Virus record (IMG/VR): IMGVR_UViG_3300023202_000135
Coordinates: 1 to 64,000 of that record
Reading direction: 5' to 3' (one strand)
DNA from: a virus
Length of the DNA stretch: 64,000 nt
This document shows, piece after piece, positions 54,452 to 59,158 of the stretch (positions are counted from its first letter, which is position 1; the number at the start of each line of letters is the position of its first letter). The notes under the pieces are model-generated. The model had not been told where the DNA came from, searched no databases, and saw nothing but the letters and a program-made list of their open reading frames with translations. The translations under genes were made by a program, and so were the position numbers.

Positions 54452-55486
54452 TCAAACCTCCACGAACAGGCGCGGGTGAAACTCCCACAGACGGTGGTCC
54501 CGGTCGAGGGCGTTGATGACCGCGATCTCCCAAGCGCCCGGAAGCGCCTCCGGCCCTTGGTGCGCACCGAGGAGGCCGCCGACGATTGCGGCGTTGGTGT
54601 CCGAGTCCCCGCCGCGATTCGTGATGTCGATGATCGCGTCGCGGTAGGGGGTGCCGTGGTACAGATGCCAGAAGGCGAGGCGGAAGGCCACGCGGACGAA
54701 GCCTTGCGCGCCGTACATGTCGAGCGCGATGCCGTGATCCTCGCCCATCACGAGGGCATCATCCTGCTCCGCCATGAGGAGGTCCTCGCTCAGCGCGCCG
54801 GCCGCCTCGTTGACTTCATCATCCGAGTACCGACCGGTGACGCGCAGCCGGGTCGCGGCCATCGTGATCGCGGCCTCGGCCGCCGCGGTGACCTTGGTGA
54901 CGGGCTCCTCGCGCAGCGCGTGGGCGATGGCGGTGGCGTAGGCCGCGCAAGCGCTCACGCACTTGGGGTCCGCGTGCGTGAGCGCTGCATCGGTGATGGC
55001 AAGCTGGATCCGCTCGTGATCGCGCTCCTCGTCCTGCCATCGCCATGCGCCGATGGGGGCGCACCTCATGAGCGAGCCATTGCCCGCCGCGCGCCGGCCA
55101 CCCTGATCCCAGGAGATGTACCCTTGGTCGACGTTGGCGCTCGCCAGGGCGGCACTGGTCTGCCCGCCGATGTCGAAGGTGACATTGCACCAAGCGCGGT
55201 ACAGCTCGTGGAGGACCTCGGGGTCGATGCCGTCTTCCAGGCACAGGTGGACGTGCAGGACGGTCGCCATCATGGTGTCGTCCGTGACCTGCCCCTTGGC
55301 CACGTTGAACGGGCCGCCGCCGACCAGCTCGGTCTGCGGGCCGTCCAAGAGCGTGTCCTTGGTCAGTGGGGGGAGGTCGCGGGGTCGGGCGAACTCGTTG
55401 GTGGTTCCGAAGGCGTCGCCGCAGGCGAGGCCCAAGAGGGCGCCGTTACGGCGCTTTTTGATGGGGATAGCAGGGGTCTGCGTCAT
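54452..55486 (-). CDS. ADP-ribosylglycohydrolase (ARH/DraG family)
   Basis: GLACGDAFG, TDDT, AGNGSLMRCAP, LTH, GGDSDTNAAIVGGLLGA. Confidence 0.93.
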   Translation of the reverse strand: MTQTPAIPIKKRRNGALLGLACGDAFGTTNEFARPRDLPPLTKDTLLDGPQTELVGGGPFNVAKGQVTDDTMMATVLHVHLCLEDGIDPEVLHELYRAWCNVTFDIGGQTSAALASANVDQGYISWDQGGRRAAGNGSLMRCAPIGAWRWQDEERDHERIQLAITDAALTHADPKCVSACAAYATAIAHALREEPVTKVTAAAEAAITMAATRLRVTGRYSDDEVNEAAGALSEDLLMAEQDDALVMGEDHGIALDMYGAQGFVRVAFRLAFWHLYHGTPYRDAIIDITNRGGDSDTNAAIVGGLLGAHQGPEALPGAWEIAVINALDRDHRLWEFHPRLFVEV

Positions 55487-56780: not shown

Positions 56781-56808
56781 TTCCGTAGGTCGGATTCAAC
56801 GGAGCGCC

Positions 56809-56846
56809 AAAAGACAGAGCCCCGGGGAACGCCCCCGGGGCTCTTT
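56809..56846. terminator. bidirectional terminator
   Basis: AGAGCCCCGGGG-AACGC-CCCCGGGGCTCT between convergent units. Confidence 0.75.
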
Positions 56847-57147
56847 GCGCATGAATCGGCTGAAAGGTGCGCGGTCGCTGAACGGCACAACCGTAGTGGC
56901 CCTGTGACGAAGTGTCAACGACGAATATGGCTGACCACTTTCGCCAGCGCCTCGGACGTCGCGAGCACAGCTTCGGCCCAGGAGCGGTAGGTGCCGCTCC
57001 AGATATACAGGCTGCCGTCTCCTAGACGCTCTGCGATAATTGCCACCCAACAGAGCGTGTCGACCATGTATATGCGGACCTCGTACACGAGCCGATTCTG
57101 GCACCACGGCAAATGCTGCAACCGCGTCAATATGGCGTAGTGCCGAG

Positions 57148-57218
57148 TTGCCTCCCCTGGACTCGAACCAGAACTAGCAGAGCCAAAATCTGCTGTGCTA
57201 CCATTACACCAGGAGGCA
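57148..57218 (-). tRNA. tRNA-Gln(TTG)
   Basis: Cloverleaf with GCAGA-TTTTGGC-TCTGC anticodon arm and T1-A72 pair. Confidence 0.9.
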
Positions 57219-57220
57219 TT

Positions 57221-57333
57221 GCGTCCGCGCCCCCTTATCCCTGTACTTCGGGGCTTGCGATTGGAGGGCCGGCGTTCCAACCCTCGCGCGCGCGTAGGGG
57301 CGCCCGGGCGCGCGAGAGGAGCAGGGACCGGCC
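57221..57333 (-). ncRNA. unclassified structured RNA between tRNAs
   Basis: Three stems plus two potential loop-tail pseudoknots. Confidence 0.4.
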
Positions 57334-57337
57334 AAAG

Positions 57338-57379
57338 CTGCCAAGGGAGGGGTCGAACCTCCGACCAGCGGATTAACAG
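57338..57379 (-). pseudogene. 3' half of an interrupted tRNA-Asn
   Basis: CTGTTAA-TCCGC-TGGTC-GGAGGTTCGACCCCTCC-CTTGGCA-G. Confidence 0.8.
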
Positions 57380-57382
57380 AAG

Positions 57383-57455
57383 CAGCCGGTGTGGGACTCG
57401 AACCCACTTCTCGCGGTTAACAGCCGCGCGTAAAGACCTGCTATACTATCCGGCT
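57383..57455 (-). tRNA. tRNA-Asn(GTT), nested copy
   Basis: CGCGG-CTGTTAA-CCGCG anticodon arm, GTGGG-TTCGAGT-CCCAC T arm, one acceptor-stem mismatch. Confidence 0.85.
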
Positions 57456-57817
57456 TGACGTGCGTTGTACCTGCCTGCGCATTTGCGTCCGCAGAACAGC
57501 AAGCCTGACCGACGCTGCGCCGCGAATCGAACCCTTGCGCGTGTCCGTTGGAATGCCTTACCGCATTCCGGGCATTCGAGATCAACCGCAGGATGCGCAT
57601 GGCGCGAACCATGATCCGCTCGCTTCACGAGTTCCAAGTTACCCGGTCGATTGTCCCGCTTCTTCCCGTTCATGTGATGGATCAGCTCGCCGGGCCCGGG
57701 GACCACTCCGTGCGTCTCCCAGTAGACGAGGTGATGCTCATAGCAGTACAGGCCTCGGTACCGCTTTCCGGGGTACCCTTCCGGGGCTTTCACCAGCTCG
57801 TACGGCCCGTTCCTCAT
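57446..57817 (-). CDS. HNH endonuclease with C-terminal Zn finger
   Basis: YEHHLV...IHHMNGKKRDNRPGNLEL and CPECG...FCGRKC. Confidence 0.88.
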   Translation of the reverse strand: MRNGPYELVKAPEGYPGKRYRGLYCYEHHLVYWETHGVVPGPGELIHHMNGKKRDNRPGNLELVKRADHGSRHAHPAVDLECPECGKAFQRTRARVRFAAQRRSGLLFCGRKCAGRYNARQAG

Positions 57818-57851
57818 TCGGGTAGTGTAGAACCGGAGTTAACACCGGCAA

Positions 57852-57879
57852 GCCCGCTCTACCGCTGAGCTACTTGGCA
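57852..57879 (-). pseudogene. 5' half of an interrupted tRNA-Asn
   Basis: TGCCAAG-TA-GCTC-AGCGGTA-GAGC; acceptor strand pairs 7/7 with CTTGGCA at 57339-57345. Confidence 0.8.
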
Positions 57880-57882
57880 ATA

Positions 57883-57968
57883 TGGCGGAAGGTCAAGGAA
57901 TCGAACCCTCATGCTTTCACATGGCCCGGTTTTCGAGACCGGTTGGACGCCGTTGTCCGCGACCCTCC
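57883..57968 (-). tRNA. tRNA-Ser(CGA)
   Basis: CCGGT-CTCGAAA-ACCGG, long variable arm, G73, encoded CCA. Confidence 0.88.
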
Positions 57969-57975
57969 GTAGTAT

Positions 57976-58048
57976 TGCTGCGAGGAGGAATCGAACCCCC
58001 GACCCGTCGATTACGAAACGACCGCTCTGCCGGCTGAGCTACCGCAGC
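57976..58048 (-). tRNA. tRNA-Thr(CGT)
   Basis: Anticodon loop TTCGTAA; canonical D and T arms. Confidence 0.88.
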
Positions 58049-58079
58049 ATGAAATGATCGTCCCTGCCCGTCAGGGTAA

Positions 58080-58174
58080 AGCTCCGTCGCGGCCTCGAAC
58101 CGCGTCCTTCCGTTCCGGGTGGGGATCGAACCCATGGGGGAGGTCGACGCCTCCCGAAGCCCATCGAACGAAGC
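58080..58174 (-). ncRNA. tRNA-like RNA with two T-arms and no clear anticodon arm
   Basis: GCTTCGT/ACGGAGC acceptor-like stem; two TTCGA loops. Confidence 0.5.
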
Positions 58175-58185
58175 AACGATCGTAG

Positions 58186-58262
58186 TGGAGCGCGCAGTCG
58201 GATTTGAACCGACGTCTCCTGCTTGGAAGGCAGGGGCCCTAGGCCAACTGGACGATGCGCGC
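58186..58262 (-). tRNA. tRNA-Gly(TCC)
   Basis: CCTGC-CTTCCAA-GCAGG, U73, encoded CCA. Confidence 0.92.
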
Positions 58263-58265
58263 GCG

Positions 58266-58341
58266 TGGTACTCGTGGGCGGACTCGAACCACCAACCTTC
58301 CGCGTATCAGACGGACGCTCTGACCATTGAGCTACACGAGA
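58266..58341 (-). tRNA. tRNA-Ile(GAT)
   Basis: TCCGT-CTGATAC-GCGGA, A73, encoded CCA. Confidence 0.9.
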
Positions 58342-58369
58342 TCGTGACTTGCCACTGTGATAGGTTGTC

Positions 58370-58405
58370 AAAGAAAAAGCCCCGAGCTTTGTAGGCCCGG
58401 GGCTT
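58370..58405 (-). terminator. attenuator terminator upstream of the tRNA array
   Basis: AAGCCCCGGGC-CTACAAA-GCTCGGGGCTT followed by TTTCTTT. Confidence 0.85.
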
Positions 58406-58430
58406 GGTTGGTCCTTGAAGCGAATGCGCG

Positions 58431-58508
58431 TTAGACCATGCAGCCCCGGTCGGTCCATCCCTGGATCGAATTACCGCCGGTGATCTGCGTGGGTTGCGTG
58501 AAGCGCAT
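58431..58508 (-). CDS. leaderless attenuator leader peptide MRFTQPTQITGGNSIQGWTDRGCMV
   Basis: ATG lies 7 nt after the -10 box; codons match the downstream tRNA set; overlaps the antiterminator strand. Confidence 0.75.
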   Translation of the reverse strand: MRFTQPTQITGGNSIQGWTDRGCMV

Positions 58509-58514
58509 GGTCGA

Positions 58515-58542
58515 ATCGTAGTGGTGCGGGGGGCGCAGTCAA
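58515..58542 (-). promoter_or_regulatory. promoter of the leader/tRNA operon
   Basis: TTGACT-N16-TACGAT with ACCAC before the -10. Confidence 0.7.
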
Positions 58543-58567
58543 CGAAACTGTCTCGCGGGCTGAGGTG

Positions 58568-59158
58568 TCAGTCGCCCGGGAGGGCGTCGTACAGCGCAGA
58601 GATTTGCGCCGGGGTGAGGGTCAGGTAATCCGTGCCCTCCGGCAACAGGCCGCATTCGATTGCGGCTTCGCACACGCGCTGATCGTGAGCCAGGAATAGC
58701 GGCATTGGATCCGGCATGCCCCGACGCTCCCACTCCTGGCGTATCTTTCTTCGGTACTCCGCGTCGTCCTGTTCCTCGGCCGCGTGCGCATCGGCGGCCG
58801 TGTTGAAGGCCTGCACCACTTTGACCTCGGTGGCCTCGAAAACCGGAATGGTCAGGTCCTTGGCCAGCTCATCGTCGTACTCGTGTACCTCTGTCATCAC
58901 GTACGTGGCCTGAACCATGAGGTAATCAGCGAACTCATCGGCATCCTCTCGAAGTTCGATGTCATCGGCGTCGTACACGTCCATCGCGTAGTCCCACCAC
59001 AGGTCCAGCAAGTCGTGCAGGTCGTCCCACGCCACTGACCCCGGGTCGGGCGGCCATGCAGTTCCAGCAATCGGGTCGAGGGTATCCAATCCCCCTGAGA
59101 AAATAATCCTTCCGACGAGGGTAATCGGTGCCTTGGTGGGTCGGTTGTGCGCGATCAT
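58568..59158 (-). CDS. hypothetical acidic protein
   Basis: AAGGAG SD; upstream promoter TTGCAC-N17-AATACT at 59182-59210. Confidence 0.65.
   Translation of the reverse strand: MIAHNRPTKAPITLVGRIIFSGGLDTLDPIAGTAWPPDPGSVAWDDLHDLLDLWWDYAMDVYDADDIELREDADEFADYLMVQATYVMTEVHEYDDELAKDLTIPVFEATEVKVVQAFNTAADAHAAEEQDDAEYRRKIRQEWERRGMPDPMPLFLAHDQRVCEAAIECGLLPEGTDYLTLTPAQISALYDALPGD

Follow-up and report, generated by a model that had tools for sequence, protein, structure and literature searches.

Homing endonucleases persist either in self-splicing elements (introns and inteins) or next to the genes that they target. Group I introns with HNH open reading frames (ORFs) occur in the anticodon loops of tRNA genes. 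Integrating phages and islands also make use of tRNA genes: they carry a copy of the end of the gene in attP, and an intact tRNA gene remains after insertion.

The closest known system to the locus described here, albeit with a nuclease of a different family, is SegB of phage T4. This homing endonuclease is encoded in a tRNA cluster and its preferred site lies within the tRNA-Asn gene that segB-less phages carry; loss of the segB stop codon by tRNA maturation has been proposed to act as a brake on its expression (PMC2330249). Intron-less homing endonuclease genes are also known from protein genes. One example is mobE, which lies inside the ribonucleotide reductase gene of Aeh1 (cited in PMC2330249), and protein genes split by such elements have been termed ‘fractured genes’ (PMC2677866). 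In cluster M mycobacteriophages, tRNA diversity driven by HNH genes has been reported (Pope et al. 2014, as cited in PMC5966550).

The locus considered here lies in a viral genome, IMG/VR record IMGVR_UViG_3300023202_000135, of which positions 1–64,000 (64,000 nucleotides) were analysed and are referred to as the window. It occupies positions 57338–57879 on the minus strand, within a tRNA array located 1.8 kb downstream of a Gp23-type capsid gene. An initial annotation had described the two halves of a tRNA-Asn gene with complementary acceptor strands, held apart by an HNH ORF and a complete nested tRNA-Asn, and this layout holds in all its coordinates and features, which are as follows.

57147..58341, minus strand: tRNA array with Ile(GAT), Gly(TCC), Thr(CGT), Ser(CGA), the split Asn gene, a 118-nt GC-rich spacer and Gln(TTG) (ARAGORN, Rfam)
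57854..57879, minus strand: orphan 5′ piece of the outer tRNA-Asn, tRNA positions 1–27 (direct reading)
57824..57851, minus strand: promoter-like stretch from a decayed anticodon arm (script search, 8/12 to consensus)
57446..57817, minus strand: HNH_3 endonuclease ORF, 123 aa (ORF list, Pfam PF13392)
57383..57455, minus strand: nested complete tRNA-Asn(GTT) (ARAGORN, Rfam RF00005)
57380..57382, minus strand: 3-nt spacer CTT between the discriminator of the nested tRNA and the outer 3′ piece (direct reading)
57338..57379, minus strand: orphan 3′ piece of the outer tRNA-Asn, tRNA positions 32–73 (nhmmer)

The orphan 5′ piece comprises the 5′ acceptor strand, U8 and A9, both strands of the D stem around a 7-nt D loop, G26 and G27. 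It fits the regular expression for a canonical D arm, and with the sequence that follows it (57879–57835) it matches positions 1–41 of a tRNA-Asn model at E 0.11 (nhmmer). An intact tRNA-Asn in another contig, L002, which is from an unrelated, low-GC phage, begins with the same 24 nt as this piece. The orphan 3′ piece contains the anticodon loop, the 3′ strand of the anticodon stem, the variable loop, the T arm, the 3′ acceptor strand and a discriminator G, and matches model positions 31–73 (E 2.7e-6; nhmmer, ~130 kb searched). The acceptor strands of the two pieces form 7/7 Watson–Crick pairs, for which simple arithmetic gives a chance of ~6e-5 for a fixed pair of heptamers. The tetranucleotide GCTT is indeed present at both junctions (57853–57850 and 57383–57380), the right-hand copy being made up of the nested tRNA’s discriminator G and the CTT spacer; a third GCTT, at 57338–57335, directly follows the outer gene’s own acceptor strand. 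The insert is 470 nt long with only ~60 nt outside the ORF and the tRNA; its single ORF is the HNH gene, and it contains no site-specific recombinase. In tRNA coordinates the orphan pieces overlap, the 5′ piece being followed by a decayed anticodon arm of its own, so that the anticodon loop is present twice while positions 28–31 of the outer gene are missing. The history of the locus is therefore more complex than a single clean insertion.

The nested tRNA-Asn(GTT) scores 52.3 bits against Rfam RF00005 (gathering score 29; E 6.6e-10). Its D arm consists of a 3-bp stem and an 11-nt loop, its discriminator is G, and it is the sole tRNA-Asn within the 90.7-kb record; it is the probable working copy. 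The stop codon of the HNH ORF, TAG at 57448–57446, coincides with positions 8–10 of this tRNA, in agreement with its earlier placement in the first 10 nt. No Shine–Dalgarno-like sequence is visible on direct reading ahead of the HNH ATG.

The HNH protein matches Pfam HNH_3 (PF13392) over residues 26–70 with 42.7 bits (cut-off 24.8; E 4.5e-11) and PHROG 7545, ‘HNH endonuclease’, at E 3.9e-14. Among 78 family sequences H47, H48, N56, N60, H73, C82 and C85 do not vary, and H69 and C109 scarcely do. The family thus keeps a putative His…Asn…His catalytic set and four Cys residues, forming a C-terminal module, that would bind metal, roles which were assigned to each residue by us and not by a tool. 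There is no GIY-YIG domain in the ORF: the Pfam matches with E≤1, five in number, all belong to HNH_3 or to zinc-finger-like families. Profile searches against the PDB returned only I-HmuI at E 0.41 and weak matches to zinc fingers or zinc ribbons.

Family members are 33–54% identical to the window protein. At the DNA level similarity between the window and the other loci is limited to the first ~170–200 nt of the ORF, and so no recent transfer is visible. Among cultured phages, tblastn with the window protein finds 24 distant records, all below 60% identity (best ~36–41%), two further family members have no match at E≤1e-10, and megablast gives no match. The closest cultured-phage proteins (at most ~41% identity) are not next to tRNAs in the three regions that were checked. 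A search of 185,579 cellular genomes yielded no HNH relative (0 of 31 pattern matches confirmed), and hence no partner on the host side is apparent. A search with the flanking 196-aa protein gave no relative. The array itself is lineage-specific, since no tRNA lies within 6 kb of 19 related capsid genes and five whole related records, three of them at least 98% complete, contain no tRNA at all. A cassette-free sister genome of this phage was not found among these 19 capsid-gene relatives and five records.

The arrangement recurs in related sequences. The survey set consisted of the window and 122 further loci (42 from IMG/VR and 80 from metagenomes), and the 122 sequences with a callable ORF start fell into 83 clusters; the family therein comprises at least 83 clusters in the loci examined, with 169 representatives at E≤1e-30 and 3134 at E≤1e-10. 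A tRNA-Asn gene or fragment lies directly at the HNH gene in 68/83 clusters. In 59 of the 83 this is a full, directly adjoining tRNA-Asn, placed right after the HNH gene in 48 clusters, where it starts at or inside the HNH stop, and right before it in 11. Four clusters (L026, L045, L050 and L124) have a split Asn gene without a full copy and five have tRNA-Asn fragments only; 13 have no tRNA-Asn nearby and two have flanks that are too short. Flags for an orphan 3′ piece in L016, L013 and L118 were not used, since those pieces could belong to other tRNAs. Exactly the layout of the window is seen at one further locus, L027. Where any tRNA is called at the HNH stop it is Asn in 46 of 56 clusters, against 60 Asn among all 426 tRNAs of the loci (binomial p 6e-30). 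In these 46 clusters the stop lies inside the tRNA-Asn in 40, and within its first 16 nt in 28. The GC content of the family loci ranges from 30 to 64% and the neighbouring tRNAs vary between loci. The survey thus supports two proposals of the initial annotation: that an HNH cassette invades tRNA-Asn, in the 68 clusters at an Asn gene or fragment and the preponderance of Asn at the stop, and that it supplies a replacement, in the 48 clusters with a full copy at or inside the stop. Pairwise identities gave no sign that nuclease and tRNA travel together (Spearman 0.055), a comparison that is technically weak because free end gaps gave spurious values of 100%.

The acceptor strands of the orphan 5′ and 3′ pieces form 7/7 pairs in the window, L027 and L050, and six Watson–Crick pairs plus one G–U in L045, L026 and L124. 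The orphan 5′ pieces of 12 clusters share one end point, just past the D arm. The intact tRNA of L017 is a chimera, as its 3′ strand forms 7/7 pairs with the orphan strand but has to use two G–U pairs with the tRNA’s own 5′ strand. Of the orphans, 9/14 have a canonical D arm, against 4/57 of the adjacent intact copies (Fisher p 1.4e-5), a contrast which is inflated by the profile and regular expression used to find orphans, as both favour canonical sequences; among other tRNAs the count is 76/366. This hints that the altered D arm of the resident copy may confer immunity to cutting. Related phages with an uninterrupted tRNA-Asn had been suggested as a comparison. The intact outer allele of the window was found neither in metagenome contigs nor in IMG/VR. 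For L050, however, a 28-mer of the orphan (T arm and acceptor) occurs in six IMG/VR contigs, five of which (L156–L160) carry an intact tRNA-Asn with a canonical D arm and without an HNH gene, although these alleles are not syntenic with L050.

Between the orphan 5′ piece and the ORF lies the promoter-like stretch. It consists of a −35-like hexamer (57851–57846), a 16-nt spacer and a −10-like hexamer (57829–57824) ending 6 nt before the ATG. At 8/12 to consensus it falls under the 9/12 threshold of the tool scan and so was not reported there. The spacer holds GTTAA (57843–57839), and the motif TTGNCN, 2–4 nt, GTTAA is found upstream of the ATG in nine clusters versus three matches elsewhere in 214 kb. 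The stretch, which includes a palindrome-like sequence at 57849–57832, is identical to the anticodon arm of the nested tRNA at 10/12 positions. A pseudo-anticodon hairpin had been noted at this place. The palindrome-like sequence is real; as RNA it folds no better than shuffled sequences (z +0.70; 152 of 200 shuffles fold at least as well). Positions 57849–57832 are more plausibly what is left of the orphan’s anticodon arm, decayed and lying within a promoter-like stretch, than an RNA hairpin, and from its sequence we infer that 57824..57851 may function as a promoter.

The insert is not an intron. Rfam shows no intron family among 18 matches at E≤10 in 56800–58600; a scan of 20 related loci gave 90 matches at E≤0.01, again with no intron family. 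When the outer halves were rejoined in silico, ARAGORN called a tRNA-Asn in 27 of 756 joins, and not one of the 756 has both a 4-bp D stem and a 5-bp anticodon stem; in its intron mode (introns up to 1000 nt) the program does not call the outer tRNA. Moreover, four relatives carry split Asn genes that are beyond restoration, having lost the anticodon stem or loop. The earlier view that splicing is the less likely explanation is thereby strengthened: a ribozyme is absent, the anticodon stem is not restored by any join, and the four split genes of the relatives could not be restored. An archaeal bulge–helix–bulge intron was also considered and rejected: a Gp23-type capsid protein is encoded by the phage, along with a tail sheath and a T4-type prohead protease, CCA is encoded by three tRNA genes of the array, and the exon pairing is unavailable. 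Contigs of the same phage from three DNA sequencing runs of one study contain no joint that skips the cassette, a result which bears neither on expression nor on the absence of a cassette-free variant.

The locus is probably a free-standing, intron-less HNH homing-endonuclease cassette seated inside a formerly ordinary tRNA-Asn gene in the phage’s array. The enzyme would cut the DNA of a canonical tRNA-Asn gene between the D arm and the anticodon loop. A genome bearing the cassette would serve as template for repair of the break, and the homology arms would be the conserved 5′ and 3′ portions of the tRNA itself. By such repair a recipient would end up with an orphan 5′ piece, the nuclease gene, and a tRNA-Asn, complete or chimeric, that is spared from cutting by its unusual D arm. 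Where the right-hand join falls outside the imported tRNA, as it may have done in the window and L027, an orphan 3′ piece would be left as well. The outer halves would then be dead remnants and the nested tRNA the working gene. The decayed anticodon arm may have been recruited as a promoter ending 6 nt before the ATG, giving a leaderless mRNA. As the stop codon lies inside the tRNA, maturation by RNase P may strip it from the nuclease message and so keep output low, as proposed for T4 segB.

Three other explanations have to be set against this one. The insert could act at the level of RNA, with the nested tRNA or a tRNA-like end helix excised by RNase P and RNase Z and the halves ligated into a second working tRNA-Asn. 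This draws on a perfect 8-nt complementarity between 57849–57842 and the 3′ acceptor side of the nested tRNA (57392–57385), and on the tRNA inserts of Lak megaphages, which may themselves encode tRNA (PMC6784885). An 8-nt GC-rich match is, however, not rare in ~500 nt, and L027 has the same layout without it. Cuts at the ends of the helix would leave exons lacking the 5′ strand of the anticodon stem, not one of the 756 joins yields a proper tRNA, and a 372-nt ORF lies between the supposed helix strands. The four split genes that have no nested copy have lost the anticodon stem or loop. RNA-level excision is very improbable.

It is less far-fetched, albeit still unlikely, that the halves arose by recombination or duplication of tRNA-Asn paralogues in a shuffling array, the HNH gene being a bystander that favours tRNA-rich regions. 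HNH genes are the commonest ORFs in mycobacterial and phage tRNA arrays (PMC5966550, PMC6582537), the overlap of the orphans in tRNA coordinates needs more than one event, and no transfer event is visible. A bystander would nevertheless adjoin any isotype, which is at odds with the share of Asn at the stop (46/56, compared with 60/426 overall; binomial p 6e-30), with orphan 5′ pieces that stop just past the D arm in 12 clusters and with an ORF that extends into the tRNA in 40/46. The tight linkage of a nuclease to an atypical tRNA of one isotype would also suit a weapon that cuts the host’s tRNA-Asn or its genes, with the odd phage tRNA-Asn as antidote and the orphans as side effects of self-cutting; phage tRNAs that replace cleaved host tRNAs are known (PMC11555353, PMC11464382). 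HNH_3 proteins are, however, annotated as DNA endonucleases, and the scars, orphans and a chimeric tRNA, are at the level of the gene and point to DNA breakage and repair at phage tRNA-Asn genes. Four clusters have the nuclease without an intact tRNA-Asn beside it, and none of the 185,579 cellular genomes holds a relative. A role as a weapon accordingly has very little probability.

Returning to the homing cassette, a broader reading joins these elements, and we put it forward tentatively, as having slightly less than an even chance of being right in full. The sequences would represent a large, undescribed family of HNH homing cassettes specific for tRNA-Asn, drawn from viral contigs and metagenomes only, which spare their target without an intron. 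The conserved arms of the tRNA would be portable homology arms, so that the cassette could jump between the arrays of unrelated phages. The target would be rebuilt from an imported 5′ part or a whole imported tRNA, with an enlarged or altered D arm that makes it immune. The dead anticodon arm would become a promoter, and possibly an operator for the enzyme, and expression would be throttled by loss of the stop codon during tRNA maturation. If this is true, it would explain the orphan tRNA halves and odd tRNA-Asn genes in phage annotations and supply a force behind the spread and turnover of tRNA arrays in phages. It would also predict small nucleases (~120–150 aa) with long recognition sites specific for a tRNA gene, natural immune alleles from which the rules of recognition could be read, and a natural promoter built from a tRNA anticodon arm, with expression coupled to RNase P processing.

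No published description of this layout was found in the literature; supplementary tRNA tables, which lay outside the search, may bear on it. T4 segB is likewise a free-standing, intron-less nuclease gene inside a phage tRNA cluster, and the stop codon of its message is likewise proposed to be lost when the adjacent tRNA matures (PMC2330249). SegB drives its own inheritance along with neighbouring tRNA genes (PMC2330249), a further likeness, homing being in our case a proposal from sequence. The two differ in that SegB has a GIY-YIG fold in place of HNH_3, and reads a T-arm motif and cuts many tRNA genes (PMC2330249). Other HNH genes in tRNA arrays, which are thought to reshuffle tRNA repertoires, share that setting with the window; the published passages on them, however, do not describe a link to one isotype, a split target or a substitute copy.

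The ‘enigmatic’ tRNA introns of Lak megaphages are similar in that a phage tRNA gene is interrupted by a tRNA-like insert (Devoto et al. 2019, PMC6784885). The relevant text of that report describes the inserts as introns and mentions no endonuclease gene, and alleles with and without the insert align precisely (PMC6784885). The window insert does contain a tRNA-like gene, the nested tRNA-Asn at 52.3 bits, but no pair of alleles differing precisely by the insert was found, and in contrast to the Lak inserts it is 470 nt long, codes for a nuclease and yields no tRNA on removal.

Group I introns resemble the locus as mobile HNH elements aimed at the anticodon region of a tRNA gene; here the ribozyme is absent and the cost to the host gene would be met by a spare copy rather than by splicing. 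Like the window cassette, mobE and the elements of fractured genes are intron-less endonuclease genes within a target gene. Their targets go on working, since the two halves of the protein reassemble or are joined by trans-splicing, which a tRNA cannot do, and here function would be kept by duplication instead. As with elements integrating through attP, the invader brings a piece of its target and an intact tRNA remains; those elements, however, use an integrase and restore the 3′ end, whereas here there is a nuclease ORF only and a whole tRNA or its 5′ part is supplied. Set beside homing endonucleases that reside in self-splicing elements or next to their targets, the locus would thus represent a third route, one in which the nuclease gene sits inside the target and the damage is paid for by a spare copy, in an arrangement that recurs across the family.

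The interrupted tRNA-Asn gene lies between tRNA-Ser and tRNA-Gln, and its parts follow one another in this order:

57879-57854, minus strand: orphan 5′ piece of tRNA-Asn (tRNA positions 1-27)
Between the orphan 5′ piece and the ORF, minus strand: 37-nt stretch that includes a palindrome
57817-57446, minus strand: HNH ORF of 123 aa (Pfam HNH_3, PHROG 7545)
57455-57383, minus strand: complete, nested tRNA-Asn(GTT), overlapping the ORF by 10 nt; the TAG stop is tRNA positions 8-10
Between the nested tRNA and the orphan 3′ piece, minus strand: three-base spacer CTT
57379-57338, minus strand: orphan 3′ piece of tRNA-Asn (positions 32-73)

The acceptor strands of the two orphan pieces pair at 7/7 positions; the nested tRNA pairs with itself at 6/7, and its 3′ strand with the outer 5′ strand at just 3/7. 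A profile built from 22 distinct tRNA-Asn genes in related loci matches the 3′ piece (E 2.7e-6) and, weakly, the 5′ piece (E 0.11), whose first 24 nt are those of an intact tRNA-Asn in L002, an unrelated low-GC phage contig. Coordinates, profile match and acceptor pairing confirm the initial annotation, which had described tRNA-Asn halves around an HNH gene and a complete tRNA-Asn with the stop codon inside it. The ORF is an HNH_3 endonuclease gene (Pfam E 4.5e-11) with His/Asn/His and cysteine positions conserved in 78 relatives.

The virus record is 90.7 kb long and estimated to be 49% complete, the window being its first 64 kb, and GC is about 63%. Because a Gp23-type major capsid protein, a T4-type prohead protease and a tail sheath are encoded, the phage is assigned to the tailed bacterial viruses of T4-like structural type. 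ARAGORN calls an array of Ile, Gly, Thr, Ser, Asn and Gln tRNAs on the minus strand, 1.8 kb downstream of the capsid gene, five of the six being confirmed as tRNA by Rfam. The sixth, tRNA-Ser(CGA) (57883-57968, minus), ends 3 nt ahead of the orphan 5′ piece; it matches the Rfam tRNA-Sec model below threshold (33.7 bits vs 47), and to ARAGORN it is an ordinary long-arm tRNA. The outer 3′ piece is separated from tRNA-Gln by 118 nt of very GC-rich sequence with long self-complementary stretches (57221-57333, minus), and an ADP-ribosylglycohydrolase family protein of 344 aa (54452-55486, minus; Pfam E 5e-57) is encoded 1.7 kb from the array. No tRNA was found within 6 kb at 19 capsid-gene relative loci (L054-L072; 53-68% identity), and none anywhere in five whole related records (G001-G005), three of them 98-100% complete. 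Absent from all of these loci and records, the six-gene array (57147-58341) as a whole looks like a recent, lineage-specific acquisition without a sister allele. An intact outer tRNA-Asn allele was absent from the IMG/VR and metagenome contigs searched, and the same phage was present in public sequencing runs as DNA contigs only.

If the insert were an intron, the two pieces would be joined in the mature tRNA. When every 5′ end point from 57858-57831 was joined in silico to every 3′ start point from 57395-57369 (756 joins), ARAGORN did call some tRNA in 573 and tRNA-Asn in 27, the acceptor and T arms being intact. In the Asn calls, the anticodon stem is built with the last bases of the D stem, or stems are mispaired; the outer anticodon stem lacks its 5′ strand. 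At a threshold as loose as E 10, Rfam still matched no intron family here, and ARAGORN called no outer tRNA gene with introns allowed. The intron reading was rejected on these grounds, which uphold the earlier view that splicing of the outer tRNA is less likely. Excision of the insert by RNase P and RNase Z was likewise judged unlikely, as only 8 nt of complementarity were found and the tRNA was not restorable. The pseudo-anticodon hairpin proposed for the palindrome is not favoured, its RNA folding no better than shuffles (z +0.70).

The alternative, an endonuclease cassette tied to tRNA-Asn, can be judged from the HNH family. A first, protein-only scan of IMG/VR gave 9 loci, with tRNA-Asn(GTT) directly after the HNH gene in the four closest. 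An alignment-based scan of IMG/VR gave 42 loci, and the best 80 of 128 confirmed loci were taken from a metagenome scan. With the window these made 123 sequences, of which the 122 with a callable ORF start formed 83 clusters at 95% identity across the first 100 residues. A full tRNA-Asn starting from 110 nt before to 60 nt after the HNH stop is present in 48/83 clusters (46 by ARAGORN; L027 and L113 by profile), and one ending at most 70 nt upstream of the HNH start in 11. Four clusters (L026, L045, L050, L124) have a tRNA-Asn split by the HNH gene with no full copy, five a fragment only and 13 neither tRNA-Asn nor fragment at the HNH gene; in two the flanks were too short. The isotype is Asn in 46 of the 56 clusters with any tRNA called at the stop. 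Asn accounts for 60 of the 426 tRNAs called in these loci, 57 of the 60 being the HNH-adjacent ones; the other neighbours vary (Ser, Gln, Thr, Lys, Met, Ile, Tyr and others), and the loci range from 30 to 64% GC. DNA similarity of the window cassette to other loci is confined to the ORF start. At the comparative level, these counts support both the proposed link of the cassette to tRNA-Asn genes and its proposed carriage of a replacement tRNA-Asn.

Clustered at 50% identity, the family has 169 representatives with E ≤ 1e-30, rising to 3134 with E ≤ 1e-10. A pattern-based scan of 185,579 cellular genomes found no members, and three members had no close match in 50,697 cultured-phage records. 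The best cultured-phage matches to the window's HNH protein (34-36% identity; Mycobacterium phages, e.g. Starcevich and Bipolar) lie under genes annotated as DNA methyltransferase, in agreement with an out-of-frame HNH mentioned within a mycobacteriophage methylase (PMC12613952).

Related loci carry similar layouts. L027 has exactly that of the window (orphan 5′ piece, HNH gene, full tRNA-Asn, orphan 3′ piece), with 7/7 pairing between its orphan acceptor strands. Its full tRNA (1874-1947), uncalled by ARAGORN and scoring 40.9 bits with Rfam, has the anticodon loop CTATTAA and thus anticodon ATT, not GTT. In the four split genes the acceptor strands are complementary (7/7, or six Watson-Crick pairs and one G-U) and the anticodon stem or loop is lost; they are taken to be dead genes, not spliced ones. 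In L017, pairing is perfect between the orphan 5′ strand and the 3′ strand of the intact tRNA that lies downstream, and the 5′ acceptor strand of this tRNA itself requires two G-U pairs; in L123 and L117, orphan and intact acceptor strands are the same or one base apart and the D arms differ. These three intact tRNAs have the look of chimeras whose imported part is the 5′ third alone. A clear orphan piece spans the D arm in 12 clusters, recognisable tRNA sequence stopping just past it. The recurrent split and chimeric layouts may be read as scars of DNA breakage and repair. In L036 (=L035), a 90-nt tRNA-Asn (1407-1496) lies 4 nt ahead of the HNH start, its variable region enlarged by a 23-nt insertion. 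In split genes such as L045 the HNH ORF ends in this same region, and the 23 nt could be the footprint of an earlier insertion. After the HNH gene of L130 (~1060-1135), a tRNA-Asn-like gene with unpaired acceptor strands, matched by Rfam at model positions 7-64 only, looks like a failed chimera of two alleles.

The orphan T-arm and acceptor 28-mer of L050 is present in six IMG/VR contigs. In five of these contigs it belongs to a tRNA-Asn that has neither an HNH gene nor any interruption, shares the acceptor stem of L050 and possesses a canonical D arm. Their arrays are non-syntenic, and they are the nearest approach to an ‘empty site’ found; no such allele was recovered for the window's phage.

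In the window, the acceptor strand of the 5′ piece matches the 3′ piece, and from position 28 onwards there follows a promoter-like anticodon-arm remnant. By eye, its TTGCCN-GTTAACT layout resembles that of L021, another family locus, and it is identical to the anticodon arm of the nested tRNA at 10/12 positions. We infer that the 5′ piece is a mosaic. A resident tRNA-Asn would break on the 5′ side of its anticodon stem and be repaired on the left via D-arm homology; synthesis would then run on through the donor's remnant, nuclease gene and entire tRNA, with the right end joined at a point beyond the imported tRNA. The mosaic 5′ piece and a 3′ piece starting exactly at position 32 fit this history. 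The GCTT noted earlier does occur at both junctions and may be microhomology, but little weight is placed on it because another GCTT comes after the acceptor strand of the outer gene itself.

In 40/46 clusters the HNH stop falls within the tRNA-Asn, and in 28/46 within its first 16 nt; most often, as in the window, it is a TAG whose last base is tRNA position 10. Cutting by RNase P at the tRNA 5′ end would therefore strip the stop codon from the HNH message, an idea proposed equivalently for segB and T4 tRNA-Arg (PMC2330249). Upstream, GTTAA occurs within 60 nt of the HNH start, outside called tRNAs, in 29/82 clusters vs 5.3% of 2012 background windows. A TTGNCN hexamer followed after 2-4 nt by GTTAA is found in nine clusters, including the window, and 3 times elsewhere in 214 kb; the spacing is that of tRNA positions 26-31, 32-33 and 34-38. 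The hexamer usually comes directly after the D-arm remnant, and in these loci 6 nt separate a -10-like hexamer from the ATG. In a second group, GTTAA itself lies within a TGT-TAAnnT -10-like box. Near-consensus sigma-70-type promoters occur 30-40 nt upstream of the HNH start in L012, L074, L075, L080, L089 (12/12) and others, ending 6 nt before the ATG without a Shine-Dalgarno sequence; such loci suggest leaderless messages with a -35 box on former tRNA positions 26-31. As the window's stretch scores 8/12 to consensus and went unreported by a promoter tool scan, a putative promoter recruited from the anticodon arm of the dead copy and yielding a leaderless message is offered as a hypothesis.

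A canonical D arm (by regex) is present in 9/14 orphans, in 2/46 downstream and 2/11 upstream intact copies, and in 76/366 other tRNAs of the same loci. The contrast (Fisher p 1.4e-5 and 7e-4, inflated since short orphans are recognisable only if tRNA-like) hints at immunity of the intact copies. By eye, about ten downstream intact copies have 1-3 additional bases after the D-loop GGTAG and ahead of the closing D-stem strand.

Among systems studied by experiment, the nearest is T4 SegB, a free-standing endonuclease in the T4 tRNA cluster, whose preferred 27-bp site lies entirely within the tRNA-Asn gene of T2L, RB1 and RB3 and which secures almost 100% inheritance for itself and for the tRNA genes around it (PMC2330249). 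SegB is a GIY-YIG enzyme reading the T arm, whereas the window enzyme is HNH_3; the SegB account cited describes neither orphan halves nor a substitute gene, and the window locus has both. HNH genes have been noted as the most frequent ORFs of tRNA arrays in mycobacteria and phages (PMC5966550, PMC6582537), and have also been recorded in the tRNA region of T5. The tRNA genes of Lak megaphages can carry inserts in which a tRNA may be encoded (PMC6784885). In the literature searched, no description was found of an HNH gene splitting a tRNA gene and supplying a substitute. The observation is confirmed, and comparison among loci supports its interpretation as a homing cassette. The window cassette is probably a free-standing homing endonuclease of phage tRNA clusters, a known kind in a new form, apparently distinguished by strict tRNA-Asn linkage, insertion within its target, a built-in substitute tRNA and an ORF ending inside that tRNA.
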